A stretch of 64,000 nucleotides of DNA. Source: Bacilli bacterium (lineage in GTDB: Bacteria; Bacillota_I; Bacilli_A; RFN20; CAG-826). Numbering within the stretch: position 1 is the first letter of the stretch; every line of letters begins with the position of its first letter. The translations under genes were made by a program, and so were the position numbers. Below the pieces are notes generated by a model. It saw nothing but the letters and a program-made list of their open reading frames with translations. It was not told where the DNA came from and made no database searches. The stretch lies in assembly GCA_035326105.1 (NCBI GenBank), contig DAOKYO010000001.1, positions 200,405 to 264,404 on the forward strand, read 5' to 3'. Below are positions 4,073 to 26,839 of this stretch, piece after piece.

Positions 4073-4087
4073 ATAGTCTTCTTGTTT

Positions 4088-4125: not shown

Positions 4126-4147
4126 TTATCAAGTTAGGAATTAAGCT

Positions 4148-5674: not shown

Positions 5675-5685
5675 GGAGAAACAGC

Positions 5686-8693: not shown

Positions 8694-8802
8694 AGGTAGT
8701 GCCTCCAATAAAAATTAAGCCTATTATATACCCTTAAATTATTAAAAAAGCGGCCTAAAACCGCTTATTATCTTATATTTTACGTAAAAATGGTACACCT
8801 TT

Positions 8803-10518: not shown

Positions 10519-10594
10519 AGAGTAAACCGTGCACTTGCACAGTCATTTTTGTTTTTTGCCTAAAGTGATTTACCTTAGAGGAAGGGATGATAAT

Positions 10595-10906
10595 ATGGAT
10601 GATTTAGTCCGTAAAGTAATTGAACTCGATAAAGAAGGACAAGCCCAGATTTCCGCTCTTGAAAAAGAGAAGGATGAACTTTCAAATGTCCTTAAAACCA
10701 TGCGTAAAAATTTAGCTGATCGCTATGCGGCGGAAACCGAAAAAAAAGAAGCGGCTATCGAGAAAAAAATTAAGGATGATTTTTTACTACGTCAAAAAAA
10801 TATCGACATTGAATCTAAGGAAAAAGAAAAGAATATTCGCGACGCGTATAAGAAAAGCAATCAAGACTGGCTTCAGCAGTTGGTGACCTATTGTTTAGGT
10901 AAATGA
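10595..10906 (+). CDS. V-type ATPase peripheral-stalk subunit (G/H-like; E. hirae NtpF-type)
   Basis: 103-aa charged coiled-coil protein at the head of the ntp operon. RBS GAGGAAGGG lies 8 nt before the ATG at 10595; the track start at 10529 lacks an RBS. Confidence 0.65.
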   Translation: MDDLVRKVIELDKEGQAQISALEKEKDELSNVLKTMRKNLADRYAAETEKKEAAIEKKIKDDFLLRQKNIDIESKEKEKNIRDAYKKSNQDWLQQLVTYCLGK

Positions 10907-10917
10907 GATAAAACATC

Positions 10918-11949: not shown

Positions 11950-11961
11950 GGAGGTAAGCCC

Positions 11962-13890
11962 ATGATAAGTAAATTAAAACTAATCAGTCTGACGGTTAAA
12001 GAAGAAAACTTTGAAATTTTATTGAATAATTTCGTAACCTTTTCCGGCTTTCATCCAGTCGATCCCAATACGATTATCTCTTCCGTTCATGGCACTCGCT
12101 CCTTTGAAAGTAATAATCCTTGTGATCCACTGCTTGACGAAATAAAGGAAATTGAAAACAAAATCAATCTCAAGTTTGAATCCAAGAAAATATCTTGCTT
12201 TATTTCTTCTTTAGATGAAATTCATCAATATATCGAAGATGAGCATAAGAAAGTCAGCGACCGGTACAACGAAATCAAAGTGGTCGAAGACGAGATTAAG
12301 ACTTATGAACAAGCCCTGTTTCAAGTGCAAAAAGTCGAGGACATGAATATTGCCTTTGAAGATTTCTTTAATGCTAAATTTGTGTCAATTCGCTTTGGAA
12401 AACTTCCAAGCGATGTTGTTGAACGCTTGCGTTTTTATGAACAGAAACCTTTTATCTTCGTTCCATTTACAGAAGAAGGCGGATATGTTTGGTGCTTGTA
12501 TCTAACCACTCAAGAATACGAGCGGGAAATTGATAACATATTCTCCTCGATGTTTTTTGAAAGAGTCTACATTCCCGAATTCGTTCATGGCGCGCCTCAG
12601 ACGGCCCGAGTTACTCTCAGCAATAAAATTGATGAGGACAAAGCTAAACTCGAGTCCTTGAAAAATGAACTTATTGAATACGTTAAGAGTAATGAAAATA
12701 ACTTTGATAAAGTCAAAGGCGAACTTGAATTTCTCAGTGACATTTATAAAGCTAAGCAATACGCTGTCGGTCTAGGCGAACGGGTAAGTTTGACCGGCTA
12801 TATCGATAAGTCAAGCGTTAAAAAGTTGGAAGAGCATTTTGCCGGTGTCCCTTCCATTGAAATCCAGGTTCAAGACGCGGATGCGGACAAGCGTTTCCAA
12901 CCACCGACTAAGTTAAAGAACAATTGGTTTACAAGACCATTTCAGTTCTTTGTGGAAATGTACGGCGTCCCCTCTTATCATGACATTGATCCAACATTGA
13001 TGGTAAGTATAACTTACTCTCTGCTGTTCGGGATTATGTTTGGTGATTTTGGACAGGGGTTAGCCGTTGCCCTCATCGGCTTTATACTCTCAAAATTAAC
13101 CAAGAATTCCCTCGCGCCCATATTAACGCGGATTGGATTCTCCAGTGCCTTCTTTGGAATTGTATACGGAGAAACTTTCGGAAATGAAACTTTCCTTGAT
13201 CCTTTCTATGGATGGCTAAGCAAAATATTCAACACGGAGATTCACCCACTGCATCCGATGGATAACACGGTGACGATGAATCTATTGCTTGCCACGGTCG
13301 CCATTGGAGCGGCAATAATCCTGTCTTCCATTATAATCAACACGGTGACGAAGTTCCGCGTCAAGAAATATGCGGATGCGCTCTTCTCCTCAAATGGACT
13401 AAGCGGACTTCTGCTCTATGGATTTGTGCTTGCCGGCATCGTTATGCAGATGCTTCTTGGTATTAAAAATGTGTTTAATCCCGTAACTATTATCTTATTT
13501 ATTGTTATCCCGATTATTCTCATCTTCTTCAAAGAACCGATTGAGCGCAAACTAGCTCATCAAGCGATGTTTCCCGAAGGGGTCGGTGGATTTATCACCG
13601 AAGGTTTCTTTGAATTGTTTGAAGTTTTATTATCTTATGTTACTAACACCCTCTCCTTTCTTCGGGTTGGAGGTTTCGTCCTATCACACGCCGGGATGAT
13701 GCTCGTGGTTGCCACGTTGATGAATATGGCAAGCGGGGCTGGTAGTATTGTGGTTTCGGTTCTCGGCAATCTATTTGTTATGGGACTCGAAGGTCTTATT
13801 GTCGGTATTCAGGTTTTGCGGCTTGAATTTTACGAGATGTTCTCCCGTTACTTTGAAGGTGACGGAATACTATTTAATCCAATCTTTTAG
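11962..13890 (+). CDS. ntpI: V-type ATPase subunit I (a-subunit)
   Basis: 642 aa. The N-terminal ~350 aa are cytoplasmic. The C-terminal polytopic domain has the conserved Arg region LSFLRVGGFVLSHAG. Confidence 0.9.
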   Translation: MISKLKLISLTVKEENFEILLNNFVTFSGFHPVDPNTIISSVHGTRSFESNNPCDPLLDEIKEIENKINLKFESKKISCFISSLDEIHQYIEDEHKKVSDRYNEIKVVEDEIKTYEQALFQVQKVEDMNIAFEDFFNAKFVSIRFGKLPSDVVERLRFYEQKPFIFVPFTEEGGYVWCLYLTTQEYEREIDNIFSSMFFERVYIPEFVHGAPQTARVTLSNKIDEDKAKLESLKNELIEYVKSNENNFDKVKGELEFLSDIYKAKQYAVGLGERVSLTGYIDKSSVKKLEEHFAGVPSIEIQVQDADADKRFQPPTKLKNNWFTRPFQFFVEMYGVPSYHDIDPTLMVSITYSLLFGIMFGDFGQGLAVALIGFILSKLTKNSLAPILTRIGFSSAFFGIVYGETFGNETFLDPFYGWLSKIFNTEIHPLHPMDNTVTMNLLLATVAIGAAIILSSIIINTVTKFRVKKYADALFSSNGLSGLLLYGFVLAGIVMQMLLGIKNVFNPVTIILFIVIPIILIFFKEPIERKLAHQAMFPEGVGGFITEGFFELFEVLLSYVTNTLSFLRVGGFVLSHAGMMLVVATLMNMASGAGSIVVSVLGNLFVMGLEGLIVGIQVLRLEFYEMFSRYFEGDGILFNPIF

Positions 13891-13901
13891 GAGGTATTAA
13901 G

Positions 13902-14354
13902 ATGGAATGGATTGTTTTAGCGTTTATTATCGCTGGTATTGCTCTTATTTGTTTACCCCTTATCAAAGTTTTTAAAGGTAAGGTTGCCGCTGTTTCGGCT
14001 AAGAAGCGGGTCGTGCTTCATGTTGCCCTATTCTTTACTTTGCTTGTGATTACCGCCGTTTCGGCGCCGCACGTATTAGGCGCGACTGTCAGCCCCACCG
14101 ATGGTGCTGCTCTCGAACTATACAGTAAGGCTGCTGGCTTTGGCTATTTAGGCGCCGCTCTTTCCACGGGATTAAGCGCGTTGGGTGCCGGTATTGCCGT
14201 CGCCGCCGCCGCTCCAGCTGCTATTGGAGCGATTTCTGAGAATCCTAAAAACTTAGGTAAGTCATTAATCTTCGTTGCTCTTGGTGAAGGTGTTGCCATT
14301 TATGGTTTGCTTATCTCAATTTTAATTCTCAACAATATCCCAACTTTAGCGTAA
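13902..14354 (+). CDS. ntpK: V-type ATPase proteolipid subunit K
   Basis: 150-aa double-hairpin proteolipid with the conserved carboxylate in GEGVAIYGL. Confidence 0.9.
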   Translation: MEWIVLAFIIAGIALICLPLIKVFKGKVAAVSAKKRVVLHVALFFTLLVITAVSAPHVLGATVSPTDGAALELYSKAAGFGYLGAALSTGLSALGAGIAVAAAAPAAIGAISENPKNLGKSLIFVALGEGVAIYGLLISILILNNIPTLA

Positions 14355-14362
14355 GAAGGTTG

Positions 14363-14689
14363 ATGAAAGTGAAGTTCTACGTATTAAGTGATAATGACGA
14401 TACTTTAATCGGTATGCGTTTAGTAGGAATCAAGGGCGAAGTCATACATGAGCGACCGCTACTTTTGAAACGTCTCGGTGAAGTCATGCGCGACGATGAC
14501 ATCGGCATTGTTTTAATCACGACGAAGTTAATCGAAATGGCTCCTAATGTCATCAGTGAACTTAAGTTACGAGCAGGGCACACTTTACTAGTCGAAATTC
14601 CCGACCGCCACGGGCATAGCAAAATTGGCGAATCAATTGATGCTTATGTCAGTAAAGCGATTGGAGTAAGTTTGGAGGGTGGTAAATAA
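14363..14689 (+). CDS. ntpG: V-type ATPase subunit F
   Basis: ~108 aa with an ATP-synt_F-like sequence (KFYVLSDNDDTLIGMRLVGIKG). The ATG at 14363 or the GTG at 14369 are plausible starts. Confidence 0.8.
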   Translation: MKVKFYVLSDNDDTLIGMRLVGIKGEVIHERPLLLKRLGEVMRDDDIGIVLITTKLIEMAPNVISELKLRAGHTLLVEIPDRHGHSKIGESIDAYVSKAIGVSLEGGK

Positions 14690-15282
14690 TGGACGGCCAA
14701 AAAAAGGATAGTTTATATTTTTACTTTAAGAAAACTATCAATGCCGAGGTTGATAAAAGAGTTAAGGCCCTCGAAGAGGAGATTGCCTCTTTAAAACAAC
14801 AAGCTCAGGTATCGATTGAAAAAGAACTTAAAGAAGAGCAAGACAATATTATAAATATTAAAAAGAGTGATTTGGAACGTGAGTATCAGTTAAAACTTGC
14901 TTCCTATCAAAGAAAATTAGATCTCGAAGTAATGGATCATCGGCAAAAGTTACTTGAGGAAATTTTCAATCGTTTAATCAATGAAATAAATGTTTTCGTT
15001 GCCAGTAAGGATTACGAAAAATGGTTTAAGCAGAGTCTTAGTGGCTATAAGCTTGCTGATTACCGCAAGATTGCCATTGATAAGAATGACAAGGTAGCCG
15101 CTAAAATAATCAAGGACACAGATTTGGAACTCGTTTTGGAAGACAACTTAATCGGCGGTTTTATCATTTATTCAAAGGATGAAAAAACACTTTCCGACGA
15201 ATCTTTAAAGAATCGAATAAATGAATCTCATGCTTGGTTCTACGACAATGCCGCTTGGTTTAATGAAGGGGAGGAAAAGTAA
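14689..15282 (+). CDS. ntpE: V-type ATPase subunit E
   Basis: 197 aa. The N-terminal half is coiled-coil and the C-terminal half globular. ATGG overlap with the upstream stop. Confidence 0.8.
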   Translation: MDGQKKDSLYFYFKKTINAEVDKRVKALEEEIASLKQQAQVSIEKELKEEQDNIINIKKSDLEREYQLKLASYQRKLDLEVMDHRQKLLEEIFNRLINEINVFVASKDYEKWFKQSLSGYKLADYRKIAIDKNDKVAAKIIKDTDLELVLEDNLIGGFIIYSKDEKTLSDESLKNRINESHAWFYDNAAWFNEGEEK

Positions 15283-17031
15283 ATGAAAAACACAATTTAT
15301 TCAATTAATGGCCCCGTCATTAAGGTACGTAACACCAGTGACTTCTCCATGTTGGAAAAAGTTTACGTCGGCCCCCTTAAATTAATGGGCGAAGTAATCT
15401 CTATTTCCGATGTCGAAACTGTCATTCAGGTATATGAAAGCACTACTGGTTTAAAAAAAGGCGATGAAGTTGTCGGTACTCACAGTTTGGTTTCAGTTAA
15501 ACTGGGTCCCGGCATCATTAAAAATATTTTTGATGGCATCGAACGCCCCTTGAAGGAAATTGCCTCGGCTAAAGGAATTTTTATTGCCCCGGGCAGTGAT
15601 GTTAATCCACTCGATGAAACTCGGCTTTGGGATGTAAAAATTGTTGGAAAAAACGGATCCAAAGTTCAAGGCGGAGACATATTAGCTACCATTCAGGAAA
15701 CGGATTCAATCATTCATAAAATAATGGTTCCTCCGTTCGTCCAAGGAGAGATAACTAATATTGTAACCGATGGTCAATATCGGATTAATGATATTATTGC
15801 TACGATTAAAACTGATGATGGCAAGGATGAAAAAATTACCCTAGTTCAAGAATGGCCCATTAAAAAGCCACGGCCGATTAAAGAGCAACTTCCACTGGAC
15901 ACACCTTTAATTACCGGACAAAGAATTATCGACACCGTCTTCCCGCTTGCTAAAGGCGGAGCAGCGGCCGTTCCGGGCGGATTTGGTACCGGAAAAACCA
16001 TGATGCAGCACCAATTAGCCAAATGGTGCGATGCCGATTTAATCGTCTATGTCGGCTGCGGGGAGCGGGGAAATGAAATGACGCAGGTTTTGGAAGAATT
16101 CCAAGCCCTCATCGATCCCCACACTCATAAATCATTGATGGAACGGACTGTTTTAATTGCCAATACATCTAACATGCCGGTTGCCGCTCGTGAAGCTAGC
16201 ATTTATACCGGAGTGACCATTGCCGAGTATTATCGGGATATGGGCTATAACGTTGCCCTTATGGCCGATTCAACTTCTCGTTGGGCGGAAGCTTTAAGAG
16301 AGATTTCCGGTCGATTAGAGGAAATGCCGGCCGAAGAAGGTTTCCCGGCATATCTTCCATCCCGTATCGCTCAGTTTTATGAACGGGCGGGAAGTGTCGA
16401 AAACCTCAATAACACTAAAGGCTCGGTCACCATCATCGGTGCCGTATCCCCACAAGGAGCAGACTTTAGTGAGCCGGTTACACAAAACACCAAGCGCTTT
16501 GTACGCTGCTTTTGGGCACTCGATAAGAACTTAGCTTACCAACGGCACTATGCCGCGGTTAACTGGAATATCAGTTATAGTGAATATCTTAATGATCTAT
16601 CCCCCTGGTACAATCGCCATGTGAGTCCGCTTTTCTTAAAAGATCGGGCTCGTATTCGGACTTTGCTGGCTGAAGAGGAAAAACTAATGGAGATCGTCCG
16701 CTTAATTGGTGGCGATGTTTTGCCCGATGATCAAAAGTTGGTTATTGAAATTGGACGCGTCATCCGTGTCGGTTTTCTTCAACAAAATGCTTTTCACCCC
16801 GAAGATACCTATGTACCGCTTAAGAAACAACTCTTAATGATGGATGTTATTCTTTTCTTGTATGATTCTGCCACCAAATTTATCAACGGCAGTCACGCTT
16901 TAAGTCTACTTTTGAAGACTGGCATTTTCGATGAAGTAATTAAGATGAAATACGATATTAAAAATAATGAATTGAAGCATTTTGATGATTTGAAAGAAAA
17001 AATCACCAAAACTATCGAATCCATTAAGTAA
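15283..17031 (+). CDS. ntpA: V-type ATPase catalytic subunit A
   Basis: Walker A PGGFGTGKT. Motifs GERGNEM and PAEEGFPAYLPSRIAQFYERAG. Confidence 0.95.
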   Translation: MKNTIYSINGPVIKVRNTSDFSMLEKVYVGPLKLMGEVISISDVETVIQVYESTTGLKKGDEVVGTHSLVSVKLGPGIIKNIFDGIERPLKEIASAKGIFIAPGSDVNPLDETRLWDVKIVGKNGSKVQGGDILATIQETDSIIHKIMVPPFVQGEITNIVTDGQYRINDIIATIKTDDGKDEKITLVQEWPIKKPRPIKEQLPLDTPLITGQRIIDTVFPLAKGGAAAVPGGFGTGKTMMQHQLAKWCDADLIVYVGCGERGNEMTQVLEEFQALIDPHTHKSLMERTVLIANTSNMPVAAREASIYTGVTIAEYYRDMGYNVALMADSTSRWAEALREISGRLEEMPAEEGFPAYLPSRIAQFYERAGSVENLNNTKGSVTIIGAVSPQGADFSEPVTQNTKRFVRCFWALDKNLAYQRHYAAVNWNISYSEYLNDLSPWYNRHVSPLFLKDRARIRTLLAEEEKLMEIVRLIGGDVLPDDQKLVIEIGRVIRVGFLQQNAFHPEDTYVPLKKQLLMMDVILFLYDSATKFINGSHALSLLLKTGIFDEVIKMKYDIKNNELKHFDDLKEKITKTIESIK

Positions 17032-17040
17032 GGAGAAAAC

Positions 17041-18489
17041 ATGGCATTACAATATATTGGTTTAACTGCAGTTAATGGCCCATTGGTTTTTCTTCAAGGT
17101 GTAAATGGCGTCGGCTATGATGAAGTCGTAGAATTGCGACTTGATAATGGCGAAGTCCGTAATGGACGTGTCATTGAAATCGATGGTGATAAAGTTGCCA
17201 TTCAAGTATTTGAAGGAACGCAGGGACTAGGATTAAAGGAAGCCAAAGTAAAGTTTTTAGGCCGTCCATTAGAGCTTCCACTATCTCAGGAAATTCTCGG
17301 ACGTATCTTTAATGGTGCTGGCGAACCGATTGACGGATTGGGACCGGTTTTCGCTAGTGTTCGCCGTGACGTCAATGGCGAGGCCCTCAACCCAGTATCT
17401 CGGGTTTATCCTCGAAACTATATTCAAACCGGCATCTCTTCAATTGATGTTCTTACGACACTTATCCGCGGACAAAAACTTCCGATATTTACCGGGACCG
17501 GCCTTCCTCATAATGAACTGGCCGTTCAAATTGTTCGCCAAGCCAAAATTGCTGACAAAAATAACGAGAAATTCTGTATTGTCTTTGCCGCGATGGGAGT
17601 TAAGCACGATGTTGCTCAATACTTTGAGCAAGCTTTTGAAGATGCTCATGTTATGGATCATGTAGTAATGTTTACCAATATTGCTAACGACCCGATCATC
17701 GAACGGATTCTTACTCCGCGCTGCGCGTTAACCGCAGCCGAATATCTTGCATTTGAAAAAGGATACAATGTCTTGGTTATCCTTACTGATATGACCGCCT
17801 ATTGTGAAGCCTTACGGGAGTTTTCTTCTTCTAAAGGCGAAATTCCCGGTCGGAAAGGATTCCCCGGTTACTTATACAGTGACCTCGCAAGCCTTTATGA
17901 ACGGGCAGGCATGGTCCATGGTCGGCCGGGTTCCGTCACTCAAATTCCGATTCTAACTATGCCCAATGACGACATTACGCACCCTGTTCCCGATTTGACT
18001 GGGTATATTACCGAAGGTCAAATTGTCTTGGATCGCGAATTATACCAAAAGGGCGTTTTTCCACCGGTTTCGATTTTACCTTCCCTTTCACGTTTAATGA
18101 AAGATGGCATCGGTGCCGAATATACCCGTGAAGATCACCAAGCTATGGCCAATCAACTTTTCGCCAGTTACGCCAAAGTGCAGGAAATTCGTTCATTAGC
18201 CGCGGTAATCGGCGAAGATGAATTAAATGAAACCGATCAAACCTATATGCTGTTCGGCAATCTTTTTGAACAATTTTTCTTAAATCAAAAAGATGAAAAC
18301 CGCGATATCAACTACTCGCTTGATTTAGGATGGGATCTAATTAGTATTCTTCCAACCAGCGAATTATCGCGTCTAGATGAAAAGTATATCACCCAATATT
18401 ATGATCCCAAACGGGCCAGCAAACGTTTCGGAATCACCGATTCTAACCTTGTAAGCAAAATTATTAATCAGGGACAGCAGGCCAAATAA
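17041..18489 (+). CDS. ntpB: V-type ATPase subunit B
   Basis: Motif [23 protein letters not shown]. No P-loop, as expected for the non-catalytic B subunit. Confidence 0.95.
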
Positions 18490-19109
18490 TGAACACCAAC
18501 GTAATTCCAACCAAAGGCAATTTGATGGCCCTCAAAAAATCGCAAAATTTAGCGATTGTTGGGCAGTCACTCATGGACCGGAAGAAGAACATTCTCGTCC
18601 GGGAAATGCTTTTACTATTGCCAAAAGTGGTGGAAATTCGTGATCAGATAAGTTCAACATACGCAAAAGCTTATATGGCTCTTCAAGAAGCCAACATTAC
18701 CCTCGGTATTGTGGAAGACATCGCCAAGGCTATCCCAATTGACGAAAATGTTCATATTACCTATCGTAATGTGATGGGGGTCGATATTCCAGTCGTAAGC
18801 CACGAAACTCAAAAATTTAAACTTTCTTATGGCCTAAGAGCCACCAACACAAAATTTGATTATGCTTACCAGATGTTTCAAAAAGCACGCGATTTAACTA
18901 TTACCCTCGCGGAAATCGACAACGCTGTTTATAAACTTGCCAATGCGATACGTCACAGTCAAAAGCGGGCCAATGCTTTAAAAAACGTCGTTATTCCGAA
19001 TCTTACTGCCAATATTAAATATATCGGCGAAGTTCTAGAAGAGCGCGATCGTGAGGAGTTTGTTCGGATGAAAGTTATTAAGGCGAACAAATTAAATGAT
19101 GGAGACTGA
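18489..19109 (+). CDS. ntpD: V-type ATPase subunit D (central stalk)
   Basis: 206-aa coiled-coil rotor subunit. Its start overlaps the ntpB stop (TAATG). Confidence 0.85.
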   Translation: MNTNVIPTKGNLMALKKSQNLAIVGQSLMDRKKNILVREMLLLLPKVVEIRDQISSTYAKAYMALQEANITLGIVEDIAKAIPIDENVHITYRNVMGVDIPVVSHETQKFKLSYGLRATNTKFDYAYQMFQKARDLTITLAEIDNAVYKLANAIRHSQKRANALKNVVIPNLTANIKYIGEVLEERDREEFVRMKVIKANKLNDGD

Positions 19110-19716
19110 AGTTCTCTCCAAAAAAAGAAAAATAGTTAAACGAATTGCCAACACCCTTTATGTTGGCATTTTATCTTTTGTTATTTTTATTTTTCTTCTT
19201 ACAACCGTGGTTCCAAACGGATTAATTAAAGTGTTTGGTGTCGGTTATTATCGGGTTACTTCTCCGTCAATGGAACCGACAATCCGTGTAAATGATTATG
19301 TCGTGGTAAAGAAGACCAAGCTTGAAAATCTAACCGAAGGCGAAATAATCGTCTTTGAAACTAATGCTCAATTAACGGGCATCCCGGTTACTGAGCGCGT
19401 GGTTGTCATTCATTACTTCGGATATGTCGATGATAACGGACACATTCTCACCTATAGTGAGGAAAAGAAAAATTACGAAGCTGATAATCCCGATAAATAT
19501 GACACTTGGGGGACCGAATCAACTCCTTATTACGTTACTGAAAAGGATCTAGTTGGTGTATATAGTAAATTAATACCCAGCGCCGATCTTATTGATGAAA
19601 TGAAAATTGTTGTGAGTTCTACTTACTTCTATTTAGCGATTGCCGGCATCGCGGGCGTCAGTGTGGGAATTTACTATCTTACAAAACATCATAGGAAAAA
19701 AGTTAATTCTAAATAA
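19096..19716 (+). CDS. Type I signal peptidase (S26 family) with a C-terminal TM anchor
   Basis: Box B motif TSPSMEPTI carrying the catalytic Ser. N-terminal and C-terminal TM segments. No KR(V/I)IG Lys box is visible (TERVVVIHYFG instead), which suggests an ER/SipW-type Ser-His enzyme. The gene overlaps the ntpD end by 14 nt. Confidence 0.65.
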   Translation: MMETEVLSKKRKIVKRIANTLYVGILSFVIFIFLLTTVVPNGLIKVFGVGYYRVTSPSMEPTIRVNDYVVVKKTKLENLTEGEIIVFETNAQLTGIPVTERVVVIHYFGYVDDNGHILTYSEEKKNYEADNPDKYDTWGTESTPYYVTEKDLVGVYSKLIPSADLIDEMKIVVSSTYFYLAIAGIAGVSVGIYYLTKHHRKKVNSK

Positions 19717-19769: not shown

Positions 19770-20051
19770 TCAGGCCCGTTTTCTCGGTAATGTGAGGCCA
19801 ATCAAACTCACAAGGAAAACCAGCAAAGGTAATCCGAAAACATTGAGGATTGCCATTAAAAAGATTCCAAGCGATGACAAGATTGTCATGAATTGGCCAG
19901 AGCTGATTGCGGTTTGAACGGCGGCAAAGTCAATGGTAACTCCCATTGCTGATGATAAATCGCCGATAGCAAAACCTGCAAAGACAAGCGCGATTAACGA
20001 AATAACGAAGAAGAGTCCGCAAATGAGTTTTCTAAACATAAAAATCATCAC
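19770..20051 (-). CDS. Hypothetical small membrane protein (93 aa, ~3 TM)
   Basis: The ORF is preceded by GGGGGTG and an extended -10 TGTATAAT. No recognisable family. Confidence 0.4.
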   Translation of the reverse strand: MMIFMFRKLICGLFFVISLIALVFAGFAIGDLSSAMGVTIDFAAVQTAISSGQFMTILSSLGIFLMAILNVFGLPLLVFLVSLIGLTLPRKRA

Positions 20052-20156: not shown

Positions 20157-20993
20157 TTATAAATTGGCAAAAATTCTCATTGCTTTTTCGGCATCTTTTT
20201 CCATTGCTTGCTCCGCAGCCAAAGCCAAATCGTGAAAAAAAGTAATATCTTGTTTTGAGAGAAGGTCCTTAACAGCCATAGTCCCCGCTTTCGACATGTA
20301 ACTATAATAATTGATTTTGCGTAATCCGTATTTAATTCCTGTTCGGTAATCATCGCAAGAAACGCCACTTCCACCATGCATAACCAGCGGTAGTTTTGTC
20401 AACTCGGCAATTGTTTTTACCCGAGCTAAATCAAGAATTGGTTTGGATTTATAAATGCCATGTGCCGTTCCAAAACTTGGCGCCAAAGCATCAATGCCCG
20501 TATCCTTGCAGAAACTAACAGCTAATTCTGGTGAAGTATATACGGGTCCGCTTGCAGCCTGCTCTCCGTTTTCGCGCGAGGCTAAAGTCCCGATTTCGGC
20601 TTCGACTCCTGCCTTATATTTATGCGCCATACTGACGGCTTTAATCGTATTTGCTACATTGTCTTCATAGGAAAGGGCACTGCCGTCATACATCACTCCT
20701 GTAAAGCCGATGGCCAGCGCCCGAGCCATGTAATCGAGATGCTCACAATGATCTAAGTGCACACAAACAGGTACACTTGCTCTTTTGGCTACTTCTACCA
20801 TAACTGGGCCGATTACATCTAAGGGAGATACTCCCTCATGAAGTTCGGCATGGGATATAATGACGGGAACATTTAGTTTTTCCGCCGCCCTTATTACCGC
20901 ATTAATACATTCGAGATTCGGAGTATTGAATGCTCCAACGGCACAGTGTTTTTTTTCTGCTAATTTTAATATATCTATTAAATTAATAATCAT
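20157..20993 (-). CDS. Class II ketose-bisphosphate aldolase (FBA/tagatose-bisphosphate aldolase family)
   Basis: LPLVMHGGSGVS and an HxH metal-binding pattern. GAGGT lies 7 nt before the ATG at 20993. An extended -10 TGTATAAT (21025-21032, minus strand) lies inside the 3' end of the kinase gene. Confidence 0.85.
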   Translation of the reverse strand: MIINLIDILKLAEKKHCAVGAFNTPNLECINAVIRAAEKLNVPVIISHAELHEGVSPLDVIGPVMVEVAKRASVPVCVHLDHCEHLDYMARALAIGFTGVMYDGSALSYEDNVANTIKAVSMAHKYKAGVEAEIGTLASRENGEQAASGPVYTSPELAVSFCKDTGIDALAPSFGTAHGIYKSKPILDLARVKTIAELTKLPLVMHGGSGVSCDDYRTGIKYGLRKINYYSYMSKAGTMAVKDLLSKQDITFFHDLALAAEQAMEKDAEKAMRIFANL

Positions 20994-21003
20994 ATTCTTT
21001 ACC

Positions 21004-22494
21004 TCATACCAGGGGGCGTATTGCATTATACACGCCCTTATATCGTTGGTATATTTTCATATATTTTTTATGCATTTCTTCACGAGGATAAAAAGTATCG
21101 CCTTTTTTGACCAATAAATCAGCGGCCGCAAAAAGATCTTTATAAATTCCAATTGCCACCCCCGTCAACATCGCACTGCCAATGGTTCCGGCATCAATAT
21201 TTTTCTGAACAGTAATCGGTAAATTTAATACATCCGCCTTCATCTGCATCCAAAGTTTAGAACGAGATCCGCCCCCGGTCGCATTTAAGTGAGTAAATTT
21301 AATTCCCGCCGAAACCAGTAATTCGTAGTTCAAATACATTTCGTAGACCACTCCCTCCATACATGCTCGATATATGTCGGCAAGCGTATGACTCGTTGTC
21401 AGTCCGATAATCGCTCCTTTTGAGCCGGTATCCATATACGGAGTCGCCGCCCCAGCAAAATGGGGAAGAACCAATATTCCTGTCGGTTCATCACTTGGCA
21501 ATTGATCTTCTAGAAGTTTATTGACACTGATCTTCTTTATTTCTGCTTCTTGTTTTTCTTCTTTGGCCAACGTATCTATACACCATTGAAGTAGGGCGCC
21601 ACCCGTGTAGGAAAAGGCATAAGCAACATATTTCCCTTTTATCAGATATGGAACAACGGCAAATGATCCCTTACTTAAGTCTTGAATAGCGGGTAAAGAA
21701 TCAAAAATGGGAGTAAGACATTCGACCGTTCCGGCGCCATCTATAGCGATGCCGCTAGTAAATGCTCCTGTTCCGACAACTGCCGCTAGTTGATCATGAC
21801 TGATTGATATAATTTGGCATTGACGATTAAGTCCGGTTACTTCAGCAATCTCAGCCGTTATATTTCCCGCATTTGTACCACTGGCCACGGGACTGCTCAT
21901 CATCGAAATATCAATGCCGGCCACCGAAAATATTTCTTCACTCCAAGTTAAACTTTTTATATTAAAAGCCATTGTTCGGGTAGCTAGAGAATAATCAATC
22001 TGCGCTTTTCGGGTTAAACTAAAAACAACAAAATCTTCAATTAGAAAAACGTGTTTTGTTTGGTTATAAACATCCGGTCGATGCTTTTTTAGCCACATGA
22101 GTTTACTGATTGAATACATTTCATGCGGAAATAAACCGGTTATATTGATTACTTTATCGGTTGTTAGTTTCTCACATAGCTCTTGACACTCTTCCTTTCC
22201 CCTGGGATCGGTATAGAGCATTGATAAAGACAACGGATTCCCTTCTTCATCGGTTAAAACAAATGACTCGCCAAAACTTGTTACTCCGATACCGACAATA
22301 TCGTTATATTTTAGTGATAATTCTTTAATTACTGCATAAACGGCATTCATTATTGCCGATGCATCTACTTCATGTTTACTCACTGCCCGTAGAAAAGAGT
22401 AAGTTCTATATGCTTTATCAACCTGTTCTCCATGTGTGTCAAAAATAGTCAGCTTACAACCGGTCGTACCAATATCCAACCCACCAATCTTCAT
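21004..22494 (-). CDS. FGGY-family carbohydrate kinase
   Basis: N-terminus MKIGGLDIGTTGCK (FGGY_N); 496 aa. The first ATG is 1 nt after the upstream stop. Confidence 0.85.
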   Translation of the reverse strand: MKIGGLDIGTTGCKLTIFDTHGEQVDKAYRTYSFLRAVSKHEVDASAIMNAVYAVIKELSLKYNDIVGIGVTSFGESFVLTDEEGNPLSLSMLYTDPRGKEECQELCEKLTTDKVINITGLFPHEMYSISKLMWLKKHRPDVYNQTKHVFLIEDFVVFSLTRKAQIDYSLATRTMAFNIKSLTWSEEIFSVAGIDISMMSSPVASGTNAGNITAEIAEVTGLNRQCQIISISHDQLAAVVGTGAFTSGIAIDGAGTVECLTPIFDSLPAIQDLSKGSFAVVPYLIKGKYVAYAFSYTGGALLQWCIDTLAKEEKQEAEIKKISVNKLLEDQLPSDEPTGILVLPHFAGAATPYMDTGSKGAIIGLTTSHTLADIYRACMEGVVYEMYLNYELLVSAGIKFTHLNATGGGSRSKLWMQMKADVLNLPITVQKNIDAGTIGSAMLTGVAIGIYKDLFAAADLLVKKGDTFYPREEMHKKYMKIYQRYKGVYNAIRPLV

Positions 22495-22495
22495 A

Positions 22496-23899
22496 TTAAT
22501 CAATATCCACCCAGTCGTAGTGTAAGTATGTTGTAAAGGCTTCTTTTAGTATATTTTTAACATGTCCTTCCCCAATCGCCGTATGATGTTTAAATCCGCC
22601 TTTAGCCAAAGTTATCATTTTATCCTGAAGTTCGGGTATTTCGGCAACACCGGCACACCCGAAATATCCGTTTTCAATCAAATCATTTGTAAATTTTGCT
22701 TCTGAGGCATAAATGATGATCTTTCCGTCAACGGTCTGACAGTTAGAAATTGTAATGGGCATCTCTTTAATTCGTCCCTCATTACACCCCCAACCGGAAC
22801 CCGGGTCTACTTTATCAAACATCTTGTGATTAGTCACCGTTCCTTTACATGTCATTAGTCCTTGGGCAACAGGTCCACAATGAAATAAGATCACTTTATT
22901 TTCTTCATCTCCGTAATTGTTGTTCCAATCTAAAACCGTTGTTGGCCGTTCGGTTGCTAGATTCATAGCCCGCATACAAATTGCCGAACACATATCAATC
23001 TCGCATGAAGCCACGATTCCTCGGTCATTTAATTCCGATAAAATAGCACAGGGACAAATTCTTAGATGGCTTTCCATCTCATTCCAACACCTAACGGCGA
23101 TGGCATCCAAATGATACTCATCAATATACTCATCCAAAACAACCGCCAATTTACCGATATTCAACATATTCTTCGCCGGAACATGTGAGAAATCAGTGTA
23201 GTTTTTAAGGTGTTCAATTTTAAGTAAGACAGCGGAATCATCATCTTTTTTGGCCTCGATTTTATCAAAAACCTCACTCAAATCGAAACTTTCGACATTT
23301 ATTCCATGTTTTTGTAATGCCAGTTCATCAAACCTGACTGTTTTAAAAGCGGTCGTCCGTGCCCCAATACAGCCTAGATTAAATCTCTTCATACCATTAA
23401 CAACCCGACATATCGCCGCAAATTCATTTAAGTTATCTTGAAACTTTGGGCTCAAGGGATGAACTACGTGCGGTTTAAGAACAGTAAAAGGAACTTGATA
23501 CTGAGTAAAAACGTCTGTTACAGAAAACTTGCCGCAATAAGCATCCCGACGATGGGCAAAATCCATTTTCCCGATTTCGTCTGGGTAAGCTTGCATTAAA
23601 ATAGGTACTCCGGCATCTTGCAAAGCCGTAATTGCCCCATTTTCATCGGCAAAAATAGGCATCGAGAAAATCACTCCATCGTATTCACCGGCATGATTTT
23701 TTAACCATTTTGCATAGAGAAGCCCCTCGTTGCGTGTTTCGATACCCCCATAGCGCGTCAAATCGGCGTCCATTATTATATAGTCATAACCGGCCTTTGT
23801 TACTGCCTTGACCATATCTTCACGCGCCCCGTAAATTAGCTCCCCGGGCATAAATCCTCGATTGCAAAAAGCCAAGGCAAAAGTAATTTTTTTATTCAT
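22496..23899 (-). CDS. L-fucose/D-arabinose isomerase-family protein (short ~467-aa form)
   Basis: The size and sequence pattern fit FucI-like C-terminal domain proteins. GGAGG precedes the ATG at 23899. The gene overlaps the upstream gene by 8 nt. Confidence 0.55.
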   Translation of the reverse strand: MNKKITFALAFCNRGFMPGELIYGAREDMVKAVTKAGYDYIIMDADLTRYGGIETRNEGLLYAKWLKNHAGEYDGVIFSMPIFADENGAITALQDAGVPILMQAYPDEIGKMDFAHRRDAYCGKFSVTDVFTQYQVPFTVLKPHVVHPLSPKFQDNLNEFAAICRVVNGMKRFNLGCIGARTTAFKTVRFDELALQKHGINVESFDLSEVFDKIEAKKDDDSAVLLKIEHLKNYTDFSHVPAKNMLNIGKLAVVLDEYIDEYHLDAIAVRCWNEMESHLRICPCAILSELNDRGIVASCEIDMCSAICMRAMNLATERPTTVLDWNNNYGDEENKVILFHCGPVAQGLMTCKGTVTNHKMFDKVDPGSGWGCNEGRIKEMPITISNCQTVDGKIIIYASEAKFTNDLIENGYFGCAGVAEIPELQDKMITLAKGGFKHHTAIGEGHVKNILKEAFTTYLHYDWVDID

Positions 23900-24887
23900 C
23901 TTTCTTTTCCTCCATAAATTCAATTTTGATTCTATTAGTTATTTCGGCAAAAGCTTTTAAAACCGGTAATGTTCCGTTTTTTCGCTCTTCGTGACGGCCC
24001 ATTATGAAACAATTTGTCGGTTCTAAACCCAAAACATAGTCACCACTAGCCATGCTCTTCCACTGCGATAAAATTGGGAGCGTATCCCCACTCCAAGAAA
24101 TCTTCATTCCGATACCAAGGGAGGGATTTTGGATTTTCGCCCAAAATTCATCGGTCATTTTTTGGAAGAAAACCTGCTCTTTCTTGCCATCTACCGGCTT
24201 TTCGAAAGTATTGGCCAACATTAGACCCTCCTGAGCAAAATCAGTCCTGGGGATTGTTTTACGGGCAGAGGGTAAAAACAACCTGGTGTTTTCGCTTAGC
24301 AAAGGATAACCAAAATTACAATGATAGATCATCATAAGTTCTTCATCCCGAGGAGTAAGGTTACTGATTTGATCCTCCACTTCGATGGAAGCTCCCCAAA
24401 TGGACAATCGAATTACACGTTTTACCTGTAGCAAATGCCCAAATAAAGCCGTTTCTTTTATTTCACCTTGAACTATAATCTCTGCATTTCGAATATCTAC
24501 GCTTACGTGCTCGGCCGCTAAACCATGATAACGACCATGAAGAGGATGCCATTCTCCGTTGTCGCGATTTGCCGGCCCAGCTGAACGCAGTCCGCAGGTG
24601 TAAAGTAATCCGCCTGGAAACGTATTAACAAACTCATTTTCATAGGGCAAAATCTTACTTGGGCTGTCATATCCATTTTTACTTAACCAAGACATGTTGA
24701 TTCCTCGGTATCGACACTGACCAAGATCAAGTCCTGTGTCCAAAAGGATATCGACTTCTAATCCGCCCGCTGTTTTGACCTCTATTATTTCACAGCCTTT
24801 AGCCGTTCCTTCGCTTATAACTAAGCGCCGAGCGGTAACAAGTTGTGAAAGATTCCCGATGTAGCCTTCTTTAAGTAAGTCCTGCAC
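23892..24887 (-). CDS. Aldose-1-epimerase-like (mutarotase fold; DUF4432-like) protein
   Basis: GTG start with GAGGTG 5 nt upstream. 331 aa with His/Glu-containing motifs (HPLHGRYHG) reminiscent of the galactose-mutarotase superfamily. The assignment is tentative. Confidence 0.45.
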   Translation of the reverse strand: MQDLLKEGYIGNLSQLVTARRLVISEGTAKGCEIIEVKTAGGLEVDILLDTGLDLGQCRYRGINMSWLSKNGYDSPSKILPYENEFVNTFPGGLLYTCGLRSAGPANRDNGEWHPLHGRYHGLAAEHVSVDIRNAEIIVQGEIKETALFGHLLQVKRVIRLSIWGASIEVEDQISNLTPRDEELMMIYHCNFGYPLLSENTRLFLPSARKTIPRTDFAQEGLMLANTFEKPVDGKKEQVFFQKMTDEFWAKIQNPSLGIGMKISWSGDTLPILSQWKSMASGDYVLGLEPTNCFIMGRHEERKNGTLPVLKAFAEITNRIKIEFMEEKKDE

Positions 24888-25029
24888 GGTCTCACCTCGA
24901 TTTCATTTTGCTGGCTATATTCTATTAAATAAAATTCTCTAAATATATAGAGTTTTGTCTGAAACACTTTGATTTTGTTCGCCAAAATAGTAAAATTTTT
25001 AAGTAGCATCCATGATATGGAGGTAGTAT

Positions 25030-25914
25030 ATGATTTCTGCATTTGATCTGGATAAACTTTACGGATTATTAAAAGATTTTTATGAAATAAGTCATATTCG
25101 AATCACTGTTTTTGACGAAAATATGAATGAACTTGTTTCCTATCCAAATGAAGTAGCCTCTTATTGTAAAATCATTCGTGGCACGCAAAAAGGGTTTGAA
25201 GCTTGCGCCCAATGTGATATAAAGGCCTGCCTTGTGGCCGCTCAAAAGAAAGGTCCTTATATCTATCGATGCCATGCCGGTTTAACTGAGGCGGTTACTC
25301 CACTTTTCGTCGGAGATCTCTTGGTGGGATACTTATTGTTTGGACATGTGTTCTCCTACAATACGTACGATGAAGGATGGTCTTTGATTAAGAACTCCTG
25401 TTCGCGCCTTGCCATCGATGAAAATGAACTGAAAAAAGCGGTATATAAGGCCCCTATTATTGATGAAAATCATATTAATTCAGCCGCTCACATCTTACAT
25501 GCGGTTGCCTCTTATTTAATTATGGAACGCATGGCTACTCTCCAAGAGGATAAATTGGCGGTTAAGCTAGATAATCTATTATCCATGAATTACACGGAGA
25601 AAATCAGCGCTTCAAAACTTTGTCAATCTTTGTCTATTGGAAAGACACAACTCTATGCATTGTCCAATCAATTATACGGACATGGCATCGCCGAGCAAAT
25701 TCGTGAATTAAGAATGAATTTGGCCAAGGATCTTTTGGCTGAGGATGATGGCTTATCGCTTTTTGAGATTGCCTCTCAATGCGGTTATAGCGATTATAAT
25801 TATTTTATAACTGTTTTTACGCGTGAAAACGGGATTTCTCCCCGCGCTTATCAAAAAAAACTTCTTTCCGGGATCAACGATAACGGAATTACCGTTAGCG
25901 TTCCTTTGGATTAG
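25030..25914 (+). CDS. AraC-family transcriptional regulator with an N-terminal PocR-like Cys-containing sensor domain
   Basis: C-terminal HTH_18 YSDYNYFITVFTRENGISPRAYQKK. The N-terminal domain has a CxxC cluster (CAQCDIKAC). GGAGG lies 7 nt before the ATG. It is divergent from the sugar operon. Confidence 0.8.
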   Translation: MISAFDLDKLYGLLKDFYEISHIRITVFDENMNELVSYPNEVASYCKIIRGTQKGFEACAQCDIKACLVAAQKKGPYIYRCHAGLTEAVTPLFVGDLLVGYLLFGHVFSYNTYDEGWSLIKNSCSRLAIDENELKKAVYKAPIIDENHINSAAHILHAVASYLIMERMATLQEDKLAVKLDNLLSMNYTEKISASKLCQSLSIGKTQLYALSNQLYGHGIAEQIRELRMNLAKDLLAEDDGLSLFEIASQCGYSDYNYFITVFTRENGISPRAYQKKLLSGINDNGITVSVPLD

Positions 25915-25937
25915 GCACAATGTGCCGGCGTTTTTTC
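25914..25937 (+). terminator. Intrinsic terminator after the AraC gene
   Basis: GGCACA-A-TGTGCC hairpin followed by GGCG and then TTTTTT. Confidence 0.5.
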
Positions 25938-26105
25938 CATGGTAAATTTTTAAAATATAATCACTCGCATACTCAAAGTTTCGATAACAAATTCTAAAAA
26001 TTGGCGTATAGATGTTATTGTATTTTTTTGTATTTTTATGAATATGTGATAGAATATGCAAGTCTTTGCTATAATATCAATTAAAGAACGGAGTGAAATA
26101 TACTT

Positions 26106-26839
26106 ATGATTGAGTTAAAGAATGTGACCAAGGTCTATGGCAAAAACACCCTTGCCGTCGATGACTTAAGTCTGGACATTAAGGATGGGGAAATCTTTGG
26201 TTTCCTTGGGCCAATGGGGCCGGTAAATCCACAACCATTAAGATGATAACCGGAATTACTGCACCAAGCAAAGGCGAGATATATCTAAATAACAAATCGA
26301 TAAAACTTGATGCACTAGTTGCAAAGCGTGAATTTGGATTTGTTCCTGACAATCCTGATGTCTTGTTACGATTGAAAGGAATTGAGTACTTAAACTTTAT
26401 CGCCTCAATATATGACGTTGATAAATCAGTTCGAGATGAAAAGATTAAGTCCTTATCCGAAAAATTCGGAATGGCGGATGCTCTCGGCAGCCGTATCGAA
26501 GATTATAGCCATGGTATGCGGCAAAAAATAATCGTCATCGGTGTTCTTCTCCACGATCCGAACATTTGGATTCTTGATGAGCCATTAACCGGATTGGACC
26601 CTCAATCGGCTTTCACCTTAAAAGAAATGATGCGGGAACATGCCGACAAAGGAAAAACCGTCTTTTTCTCTACCCACGTTTTAGAAGTGGCTGAGAAAGT
26701 TTGTGATCGTATCGGAATAATTAATAAAGGTAAATTGTTATTTGTTGGCACAATTGAAGAATTAAAAGTCTATCTGCACGCTGATGAAAGTGAGAAATCA
26801 TTGGAAGATCTCTTCCTTGATCTAGTAAAACATGAGTAA
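26106..26839 (+). pseudogene. ABC-2-type transporter ATP-binding protein disrupted by a -1 frameshift inside Walker A
   Basis: The ATG at 26106 (GGAGTG RBS) opens a frame reading MIELKNVTKVYGKNTLAVDDLSLDIKDGEIFGFLGP, which then stops at ~26244. The +1 frame continues (N)GAGKSTTIKMITG and runs to 26839. The canonical CCA AAT GGG is present here as CCAATGGG, so one A is missing at 26213-26214. Confidence 0.7.

Follow-up and report, generated by a model that had tools for sequence, protein, structure and literature searches.

The short PF02952 isomerases that have been characterised are the D-xylose isomerase XylA-II (PMC2873477) and the sulfoquinovose isomerase SqvD/SftI (PMC9594981). XylA-II of Clostridium acetobutylicum (CAC2610) was established as a D-xylose isomerase by knockout, complementation and assay, and is encoded in the operon xylB-CAC2611-xylA-II (PMC2873477, PMC3507653). 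In the sulfo-Embden-Meyerhof-Parnas pathway sulfo-EMP2, the PF02952 isomerase SqvD is already paired with SqiA, an aldolase of family PF01116 (PMC10665668, PMC9594981). Here we analysed a 64,000-nt stretch of the metagenome-assembled genome of a Bacilli bacterium (assembly GCA_035326105.1, contig DAOKYO010000001.1, positions 200,405 to 264,404), hereafter the window, in which a five-gene module at 20157-25914 combines a DUF4432 protein, a short PF02952 isomerase, an FGGY-family sugar kinase and a class II aldolase with a divergent PocR/AraC regulator. Judged by sequence comparison, the module is not orthologous to any characterised pathway in the profile libraries, the Protein Data Bank (PDB) or the searchable literature, as the first-pass annotation of this DNA had suspected when it called the pathway possibly uncharacterised. 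It is probably an isomerase-kinase-aldolase pathway of the kind known for fucose, rhamnose and sulfo-EMP, with a combination of families that the searchable literature does not describe and chemistry that is conventional.

None of the proteins reached an NCBIfam equivalog cut-off, so that orthology to FucIKA or AraBAD found no support in profile searches, and the searchable literature held no description of a module made up of DUF4432, isomerase, FGGY kinase and fructose-bisphosphate aldolase (FBA)-type genes. The mix of enzyme families had been called unusual at first reading. The lack of any equivalog agrees with this, but the pairing of a PF02952 isomerase with a PF01116 aldolase has its precedent in sulfo-EMP2.

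The four enzyme genes lie on the minus strand. The first, with a GTG start, encodes the 331-aa DUF4432 protein (23892..24887; Pfam DUF4432 (PF14486), 1.9e-81) and is followed by the gene for the 467-aa isomerase (22496..23899), a putative metal-dependent aldose-ketose isomerase of AraA/FucI fold whose only Pfam match is Fucose_iso_C (PF02952, 1.1e-10) and which NCBI labels 'hypothetical protein'. The FGGY kinase has 496 aa from the ATG at 22494 (21004..22494; FGGY_N 1e-52, FGGY_C 1.5e-32). The last gene encodes the 278-aa aldolase (20157..20993; F_bP_aldolase (PF01116), 4.4e-81), a predicted Zn-dependent, dihydroxyacetone phosphate (DHAP)-forming enzyme of the FBA/tagatose-bisphosphate aldolase (TBA) superfamily. 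The DUF4432 stop at 23892 and the isomerase ATG at 23899 give an 8-nt overlap, with GGAGG 9 nt 5' of the ATG; a 1-nt spacer separates the isomerase end (22496) from the kinase ATG, and a 10-nt spacer with GAGG upstream separates the kinase end (21004) from the aldolase ATG (20993). With a Shine-Dalgarno sequence at each of these three junctions, the four genes are translationally coupled. The 294-aa regulator, an N-terminal PocR sensor domain joined to a C-terminal AraC-type helix-turn-helix (HTH), is encoded divergently on the plus strand (25030..25914), and a terminator scan placed a terminator-like hairpin (25914-25926) at the final base of its stop codon. Gene calls in a syntenic relative, 94% identical on a 1.48-Mb contig (L104), gave the same gene lengths. 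All five open reading frames (ORFs), the junctions and the divergent regulator lie as the first-pass annotation had placed them, and the Pfam matches agree with the families it had named for the mutarotase-fold DUF protein, the FGGY kinase and the class II FBA-type aldolase.

The sole NCBIfam match of the isomerase was the sulfoquinovose isomerase SftI (NF048012), at 90 bits against a cut-off of 700; the AraA and FucI NCBIfam models and Pfam Arabinose_Isome gave no match. No PDB relative was found by sequence, including a search with a 24-sequence profile. We built an AlphaFold (AF2) model from an alignment of 24 sequences (mean predicted local distance difference test score 95) and compared it with the PDB using Foldseek. 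L-arabinose isomerases were the top matches, with template modelling (TM) scores of 0.82-0.85 at 13-14% identity, followed by D-arabinose isomerase and FucI at TM ~0.78 (11-12% identity for FucI); the Foldseek probability was 1.0 for AraA and FucI. As modelled, the enzyme is structurally closer to L-arabinose isomerase than to FucI. The earlier prediction of a short FucI-family isomerase is borne out by the length of 467 aa and the Fucose_iso_C match, but the modelled structure is nearer to AraA.

Residue numbers for the metal and catalytic positions of AraA and FucI follow the literature. E300 of the isomerase aligns with AraA E306 and FucI E337, D324 with FucI D361, H340 with AraA H350 and H438/H439 with AraA H449/H450, and all of these are invariant or nearly so in the family alignment. 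Probabilities from hhalign to AraA and FucI were low (15-29%), and the residue mapping leans on its agreement with the fold match. Given that these metal and catalytic residues are kept, and that the fold model is confident, the protein looks like a competent metal-dependent aldose-ketose isomerase; the loss of FucI catalytic residues, a possibility raised at first reading, was not observed. In an alignment of 24 family members, with identities as low as 27%, four cysteines (C271, C284, C299 and C341) do not vary; C299 flanks the putative metal ligand E300 and C341 flanks H340. These could form an extra metal site or a redox-sensitive site; we know of no such site described for AraA or FucI.

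In a library of representatives at 50% identity, the cluster of the window isomerase is isolated, its next full-length relatives being 49, 48, 44 and 43% identical, and a cluster look-up for named relatives among these representatives gave only 'hypothetical' or 'L-fucose isomerase-like'. This cluster is separate from the clade to which we assign XylA-II. That clade was entered through a match on a C. butyricum megaplasmid and assigned by genomic context, not by the sequence of CAC2610; in the same search the C. felsineum protein (P0370) was 84% and the C. beijerinckii protein (P0295) 87% identical to the C. butyricum query. In C. beijerinckii the context comprises an FGGY kinase, a ROK regulator, transaldolase, transketolase, DUF4867 and the isomerase, and in C. 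felsineum transaldolase, DUF4867 and the isomerase. We consider that this clostridial clade is very probably that of XylA-II (CAC2610, Cbei_2389). The window isomerase is 21% identical to the C. felsineum protein (BLASTP 3e-20) and, at so low an identity, would not be a XylA-II orthologue; this and the different context led us to rule out XylA-II as its identity.

In both clostridial loci the putative XylA-II isomerase gene is directly preceded by a DUF4867 gene (L099, C. felsineum, 5350-7473; L100, C. beijerinckii, 5162-7485). A published network analysis likewise found that most DUF4867 genes neighbour PF02952 and FGGY genes (PMC11968277). By analogy, CAC2611 is probably a DUF4867 (SqvB/SftX-like) protein. 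A further arrangement was seen on plasmids of Rahnella, Chondrinema and Monoglobus (L093, L094 and L096), where the genes around a short PF02952 isomerase encode a transketolase in two parts, a kinase of the FGGY family and an ATP-binding cassette (ABC) transporter of ribose type. The Rahnella and Chondrinema loci also have DUF2291, and a Lactiplantibacillus plasmid locus (L095) shows only the transketolase gene before the locus ends. This is a separate isomerase-kinase-transketolase pathway type, to which no publication could be linked. The short PF02952 superfamily is clearly functionally diverse, and the clade linked to DUF4432 and FBA-type aldolases is one without a characterised member.

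The aldolase passed only the broad cbbA subfamily model of NCBIfam, and reached 55-62% of the cut-offs or lower for the FBA, GatY and KbaY equivalog models. Its nearest PDB relatives are Escherichia coli YdjI (1.6e-45) and SqiA (8Q58; 8e-44), both ahead of true FBAs. We aligned 53 aldolases from related loci with solved structures. The motifs HLDH, EAE, GTAHGxYK and HGGSG are conserved across the 53 proteins and supply the ligands of the Zn ion, the catalytic Asp and the site for the 1-phosphate; GTAHGxYK includes the Lys that is used by FBAs and lacking in SqiA. Thr233 is replaced by Ser, and KINVNTE by a family-specific KINYY(T/S)YM.

Distal-phosphate binding in FBAs involves Ser49, Arg259 and Arg280' (Helicobacter pylori numbering) (PMC10665668). 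In the module aldolase Ala stands in place of Ser49, FHD and A..AM align with the arginine motifs DPRK and AREA of the FBA 7NCC, and no conserved Arg was found in the C-terminal 40 residues of the 53 proteins. By this alignment, the enzyme lacks the residues for a distal phosphate and would not be a bisphosphate-specific FBA or TBA. Retention of the 1-phosphate site together with loss of the distal-phosphate residues points to a DHAP-forming aldolase that acts on a ketose-1-monophosphate with a neutral tail.

For the kinase, XylB was the best NCBIfam match in every variant examined (220-284 bits, none reaching the cut-off of 380). The window protein scored 272 bits with this model, 152 with FucK (TIGR02628; cut-off 470.9), 145 with AraB (cut-off 428) and 96 with RhaB (cut-off 528).

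The DUF4432 protein matched no NCBIfam model, and the literature searched held no paper on DUF4432 function. Its only PDB relative is 3TY1, a 'hypothetical aldose 1-epimerase' of Klebsiella (4.3e-20), and the alignment of the two has LHG, YHxNFGxP and GxEP motifs, with shared His and Glu residues, in common. On this alignment the DUF4432 protein has an aldose-1-epimerase (mutarotase) fold, and mutarotase catalysis is predicted. On pTiC58-type Ti plasmids, a 26% identical 'aldose 1-epimerase family protein' (L097, 6947-7954) lies 3' of an opine-type ABC importer, directly after glycerophosphodiesterase, inositol-monophosphatase-family and NUDIX hydrolase genes. This cluster resembles the agrocinopine (acc) operon; if it is that operon, the DUF4432 relative sits just after the step that frees a sugar. 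Plasmid homologue contexts, among them the Ti-plasmid acc operon and a Pseudomonas oxidoreductase cluster, were too heterogeneous to give DUF4432 a function.

A one-genome-per-species collection was scanned for relatives of the isomerase, and the best 80 of at least 589 confirmed relatives were taken as loci. These best 80 are 70-90% identical to the window protein and come nearly all from gut and rumen Clostridia (Lachnospiraceae, Oscillospiraceae, Blautia, Dorea, Faecalicatena contorta), a few being Bacilli/Mollicutes-type metagenome-assembled genomes (MAGs). The isomerase family as a whole comprises 5,698 clusters at 90% identity. The genome-neighbourhood comparison proposed with the first-pass annotation was made on the 50 loci in which the isomerase gene is flanked by 4 kb or more of DNA on each side, counting partners within 5 kb. 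An FGGY kinase accompanies the isomerase in 49 of these 50 syntenic loci (32-66% identical to the window protein), a class II aldolase in 41 (22-78% identical), a DUF4432 protein in 33 and a PocR/AraC-type regulator in 32, an arrangement far beyond chance. Gene order varies: DUF4432 takes either the first or the third place, and the aldolase stands at one end or the other. By identity, the DUF4432 proteins form two groups, at about 55-70% and at about 31-37%; one lower-identity copy that was checked (L081) is still Pfam DUF4432.

More distant isomerases, 43-48% identical (L088, L090 and L091), keep F_bP_aldolase alongside in three of three cases and the FGGY kinase in two. In L010, L014, L020 and L057 the isomerase is about 82% identical, but identity drops to about 35% for the kinase and to 22-30% for the aldolase, which is a divergent class II form of 331 aa. 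In loci of this type the partners still belong to the same families, the kinase being a XylB-like member of FGGY (220-284 bits) and the other partner a class II protein of the FBA superfamily. Either partner replacement or lateral movement of the isomerase would explain this divergence. Since both the distant relatives and the loci with diverged partners keep the same families, the isomerase-kinase-aldolase trio is an old functional unit.

Beyond these genes the neighbourhood is not constant. ORF clustering across the 80 loci gave no recurrent extra family, the largest extras occurring in at most five, and no transporter, glycosidase, aldehyde reductase, transketolase, transaldolase or epimerase is conserved among them. 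The nearest relative (L001) carries a glycoside hydrolase family 3 (GH3) glycosidase, an aldo-keto reductase and a GPH symporter 3' of the aldolase. Genes of the Zn-dependent alcohol dehydrogenase family lie within the operon in L047 and L075, and mannitol-1-phosphate-dehydrogenase-like genes occur in L010 and L047. The accessory genes of L001, L047 and L075 fit, loosely, glycoside delivery and aldehyde disposal. RhaA adjoins the module in L058 and L068, and the best match of the neighbouring GH3 proteins is an alpha-L-arabinopyranosidase model, far under its cut-off.

In Candidatus Borkfalkia (L075, 5325-17393) the module is part of a sugar island that also encodes another PF02952 isomerase, of 519 aa, together with an SGNH esterase, two more FGGY kinases and a canonical AraD that is 62% identical to that of E. 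coli. The order found in the window, DUF4432-isomerase-kinase-aldolase, and an isomerase identity of 81-90% are those of rumen Clostridia (L001, L004, L007, L009 and L019), and in other Bacilli/Mollicutes-type MAGs (L049-L054 and L068) the identity is 72-73% and the genes run isomerase-kinase-DUF4432-aldolase. Lateral acquisition of the module in the window genome is therefore suggested, yet its GC content of 0.40 is the same as that of its flanks.

The regulator matches Pfam PocR over residues 5-165 (5.6e-38, model covered end to end) and HTH_18 (5.9e-16). Its best NCBIfam match, NF047788 for Salmonella-type PocR, a 1,2-propanediol sensor, reached 94 bits against a cut-off of 500; by this measure it is not the equivalog of Salmonella PocR, with which it has only the domain architecture in common. 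In an alignment with 43 related regulators, conservation of C46, C59, C81 and H82 is 98%. Given this family-wide conservation and the full-length Pfam match, we read the sensor as an ordinary PocR domain that implies no unusual effector. The domains recognised at first reading, a Cys-rich PocR sensor and an AraC HTH, are thus as described, and the unusual small-molecule effector suggested from them is not upheld.

The 142-bp control region between regulator and operon (24888..25029) was read directly. It contains a 16-nt candidate regulator-binding box (24967..24982, minus strand), an exact window match to GCGAACAAAATCAAAG, which lies 80 nt 5' of the DUF4432 start codon and 48 nt 5' of the regulator ATG. 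The box consensus, GCGAACAAA(A/T)TCAAAG, had 51 matches with up to three mismatches in related loci totalling 1.13 Mb, where shuffled sequences gave 7-12. About 30 of the 51 matches, from about 30 species, fall in the regulator-operon spacer and always face the operon, regardless of which gene leads it. The box is thus conserved along with the regulator. Another, weaker copy stands 67 nt off, in a 15-nt direct repeat (24901-24915 and 24968-24982, 80% identical). The conserved box is a good candidate for the operator, to which the regulator would bind.

An extended -10 promoter of the aldolase had also been placed within the 3' end of the kinase gene. The TGTATAAT motif is present there (21025..21032, minus strand, read from 21032 to 21025), but its TG directly abuts the TATAAT hexamer, which is not the canonical TGnTATAAT, and no -35 element was found for this site. 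A window-wide TGNTATAAT search returned 7 sites (3.5 expected), none of them at 21025-21032. Promoter-like sites in the region numbered 23, against 18.3 +/- 3.8 in shuffled sequence, and so showed no excess. With its non-canonical form, no -35 and matches at chance level, we regard the internal promoter as unsupported and do not count the motif as an established part of the operon.

These data allow us to propose, as the reading we hold to be fairly likely, that the module is a self-contained inducible cassette for the catabolism of a neutral aldose through a ketose-1-phosphate, following the logic of the fucose, rhamnose and sulfo-EMP routes. The DUF4432 protein would interconvert anomers or open the ring to give the open-chain sugar, which the AraA/FucI-fold metalloisomerase would convert to the 2-ketose. 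The FGGY kinase would phosphorylate the C1 hydroxymethyl group beside the carbonyl, and the class II Zn aldolase would split the C3-C4 bond to give DHAP and a short, presumably uncharged aldehyde, which general reductases or dehydrogenases could then handle. The PocR/AraC protein would sense the sugar or a small downstream product and act at the GCGAACAAA(A/T)TCAAAG box. We infer this reaction order, the C1 phosphorylation and the neutral tail of the substrate. That no transketolase, transaldolase or epimerase accompanies the module, unlike in the XylA-II clusters, speaks for the ketose-1-phosphate route, and the isomerase-kinase-aldolase logic recognised at first reading is retained at its core.

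Regarding the substrate, no transporter or glycosidase that could name it recurs across the 80 loci. Aldolases of the FBA/TBA superfamily give 3S products, whereas those of the FucA/RhaD family give 3R products, and for all PF01116 aldolases known to us the ketose phosphate that is made or cleaved is 3S. The two relatives of the isomerase that have been characterised use D-gluco/xylo aldoses, XylA-II acting on D-xylose and SqvD on sulfoquinovose. Taking the 3S aldolase superfamily and these relatives together, the substrate would most likely be an aldose whose ketose is 3S, and probably 3S,4R; L-fucose and L-rhamnose, whose ketoses are 3R, would be unlikely substrates. In rough order, the candidates are D-xylose, by way of D-xylulose-1-phosphate to glycolaldehyde; 6-deoxy-D-glucose or D-fucose, to D-lactaldehyde; and L-arabinose or a hexose of the glucose/sorbose series.

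Several points weigh against the ketose-1-phosphate reading. The assignment draws on sequence, a structural model and synteny. By hidden Markov model the kinase is nearest to the XylB type, which phosphorylates the distal carbon (272 bits, against 152 and 96 bits with the C1 kinases FucK and RhaB), and the aldolase is missing within 5 kb in 9 of the 50 loci. The loss of the distal-phosphate arginines was judged by aligning a poorly conserved C-terminus, not by superposition. Neither a transporter nor an aldehyde reductase or dehydrogenase is conserved with the module, which is unusual given the release of a reactive aldehyde, and the hints from neighbouring glycosidases conflict (GH3, GH31, GH36, GH43, GH78-like, GH127-like and GH28-like).

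An alternative is that the module is a pentose operon feeding the pentose-phosphate pathway, in which a xylose or L-arabinose isomerase and a xylulokinase or ribulokinase make a 5-phosphate and the aldolase is an accessory, either a sedoheptulose-/fructose-bisphosphate aldolase for flux or a non-orthologous retro-aldol 4-epimerase in place of AraD. A short PF02952 isomerase, XylA-II, has been validated genetically and in vitro with the FGGY kinase XylB (PMC2873477); the kinase here matches XylB best in all variants examined, L-arabinose isomerases are the best structural matches of the isomerase, and isomerase and kinase form the most constant pair, 9 loci having no aldolase. GH3, GH43 and GH127-like neighbours suggest xylosides or arabinosides, and no aldehyde-handling gene is conserved. 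However, the isomerase is only 21% identical to the context-assigned XylA-II clade member, the DUF4867, ROK XylR-type regulator, transaldolase and transketolase genes of that clade are absent from the module, and no kinase reaches the XylB cut-off. An aldolase that keeps the DHAP 1-phosphate site and lacks the distal-phosphate residues fits neither a bisphosphate aldolase nor a 5-phosphate epimerase, and the AraD, the two further kinases and the second, different PF02952 isomerase of the L075 island speak against redundancy for L-arabinose. We consider a pentose-phosphate operon unlikely on this evidence. An anionic sugar is another candidate that we judge quite improbable: D-glucuronate or D-galacturonate would pass through fructuronate or tagaturonate and its 1-phosphate to DHAP and tartronate semialdehyde, a route we liken to the reaction of E. 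coli YdjI on an octuluronate-1-phosphate. YdjI is the closest solved homologue of the aldolase, isomerase relatives accept an anionic C6 substituent (sulfoquinovose), and several loci have pectin-themed neighbours, namely GH28-like, GH78 or GH78-like and SGNH esterase genes and the RhaA of L058 and L068. Against this, the distal pocket of the aldolase shows no evident cationic residue that is conserved, the module is not accompanied by a tartronate-semialdehyde reductase, a glycerate kinase or a transporter for uronates, and the neighbouring glycosidases are few and of mixed types.

The family make-up also raises the question of a third, non-orthologous sulfo-EMP pathway, from sulfoquinovose through sulfofructose and sulfofructose-1-phosphate to DHAP and sulfolactaldehyde. 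Two of the four Pfam families (PF02952 and PF01116) are common with sulfo-EMP2, SftI is the sole NCBIfam match of the isomerase and SqiA the second-best PDB match of the aldolase, and the gut and rumen habitat is rich in sulfoquinovose. The SftI score of 90 bits nevertheless falls far from its cut-off of 700, and tblastn with E. coli YihQRSTUV and YihO/P against the 80 loci and the window gave no relatives of YihR, S, T, U or V. A generic GH31 occurs in only three loci, and the copy of L070, the only one aligned there, is deleted across the YihQ R301/W304 stretch, which holds RxxW, the motif by which YihQ binds the sulfonate. Neither an exporter for sulfonates nor a reductase or dehydrogenase for sulfolactaldehyde is conserved, and DUF4867, the usual partner in sulfo pathways, is replaced by DUF4432. 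In addition, a study of rumen sulfoquinovose describes clusters of the transketolase type, with no mention of an FGGY kinase or an aldolase. Sulfoglycolysis was rejected on the outcome of the yih-gene search in the 80 loci and the window, and we regard it as very improbable.

Under the ketose-1-phosphate reading, the route could itself be new to nature, which we put forward tentatively. It might then be a ketopentose-1-phosphate route, from D-xylose or L-arabinose to DHAP and glycolaldehyde, which to our knowledge exists only as a synthetic design, or a route for neutral D-6-deoxyhexoses, from 6-deoxy-D-glucose or D-fucose to DHAP and D-lactaldehyde; the latter, if true, would be the first such pathway in bacteria. 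DUF4432 would in that event be a dedicated anomerase or ring-opening enzyme with a PocR-domain AraC protein as sensor, and the cassette, with isomerase relatives in at least 589 places of the one-genome-per-species collection, a widespread unannotated metabolic trait of gut and rumen Firmicutes. Assignment of the substrate would give DUF4432 a function and add a third activity to the short FucI/AraA-like isomerases, a family that is abundant. None of the four enzymes of the module has a name in a curated model. Metabolic reconstructions of gut bacteria of humans, ruminants and birds, namely Lachnospiraceae, Oscillospiraceae and Bacilli with small genomes, would gain from the assignment as well. 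The system is tractable, being a five-gene cassette that needs no linked transporter and has a conserved candidate operator box, and there is at least one cultured carrier, Faecalicatena contorta JCM 6483 (L030).

Elsewhere in the window, a Cache/HAMP histidine kinase and a solute-binding-protein-like sensor are followed by an Mgl-like monosaccharide ABC transporter (161-7563, plus strand; MglB-like, MglA at 787 bits against a cut-off of 828, and MglC-like), 12.6 kb from the module, and no other sugar importer was found among the annotated ORFs of the window. Closer to the module are a serine resolvase (8013-8708, minus), an EAL-domain protein (8976-10118, plus) and a V-type ATPase operon (10529-19109, plus), followed by a probable signal peptidase gene (19096-19716); the V-ATPase/signal-peptidase flank also occurs in the syntenic relative L104. 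Directly 3' of the aldolase lies a 93-aa hydrophobic ORF with its own TATAAT (19770-20051, minus), which has no Pfam or NCBIfam match; L104 has a 92-aa ORF at the same place.

On the other side, beside the regulator, a DrrA-like ABC exporter ATPase (26106-26839, plus) has a 1-nt frameshift in Walker A (..GFLGP / NGAGKST.., ~26200-26215), and a TGCTATAAT extended -10 stands near this gene at 26067-26075. The L104 counterpart is intact, with 244 aa, and the frameshifted copy is either a pseudogene or an assembly error. Truncation of this ATPase gene by insertion of the module was considered and rejected, the gene being complete save for the 1-nt frameshift and L104 having the same flanks with an intact gene.

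Set beside described pathways, the module has the reaction logic of those of fucose and rhamnose. FucIKA with FucU and RhaABD with RhaM of E. coli likewise join a mutarotase, an isomerase, a C1 FGGY kinase and a class II aldolase that yields DHAP and an aldehyde; the rhamnose pathway also has an AraC-type activator, and FucI has the fold and catalytic residues of the isomerase. The isomerase here, however, has 467 aa and lacks the N-terminal FucI domains (Fucose_iso_N1 and N2 of the ~590-aa FucI), the aldolases FucA and RhaD are PF00596 enzymes with 3R products as opposed to a PF01116 enzyme (3S) here, and the mutarotase family differs. With E. coli FucA as query, tblastn gave no match in the window; among the 80 loci it matched only the AraD gene of L075. 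Canonical FucIKA was rejected, FucI not being detected by sequence, FucK scoring 152 of 470.9 bits and the window having no PF00596 aldolase. So was canonical AraBAD, with no AraA model match, AraB at 145 of 428 bits, and no AraD in the window or in 79 of the 80 loci. AraA itself is the best structural match of the isomerase model (TM 0.82-0.85), of similar size and with its metal ligands aligned, but at 13-14% identity and with no AraD partner here.

YdjI (6OFU) resembles the module aldolase as its closest solved homologue and in lacking the FBA DPRK and AREA arginine motifs, and differs in having KINIHTE where the module aldolases have KINYY(T/S)YM. YdjI acts on a ketose-1-monophosphate, and its operon partners, a PfkB-type kinase and dehydrogenases, are unrelated to the genes here. 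XylA-II/XylB (CAC2610-CAC2612) is alike in that a PF02952 isomerase of ~470-490 aa is paired with an FGGY kinase and a gene for a small helper. This cluster is unlike the module in its DUF4867 helper, ROK XylR-type regulator, transaldolase and transketolase and in having no aldolase, where the module has DUF4432, PocR/AraC and an aldolase.

The differences from sulfo-EMP2, of the SqvB-SqvD-SqiK-SqiA type of Bacillus urumqiensis, lie in the helper (DUF4867 there, DUF4432 here), the kinase (PfkA-type PF00365 there, FGGY here), the isomerase, whose SftI score is far below the cut-off, and the PocR/AraC regulator. The window also has no linked sulfoquinovosidase, sulfolactaldehyde reductase or dehydrogenase, or sulfonate exporter. 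Yet both systems run from a helper through an aldose-ketose isomerase and a ketose 1-kinase to a class II aldolase that releases, or here would release, DHAP, and at the family level they have in common the PF02952 isomerase and the PF01116 aldolase, SqiA being the second-best solved homologue of the latter. By this analogy of architecture, sulfo-EMP2 is the closest known analogue of the module.

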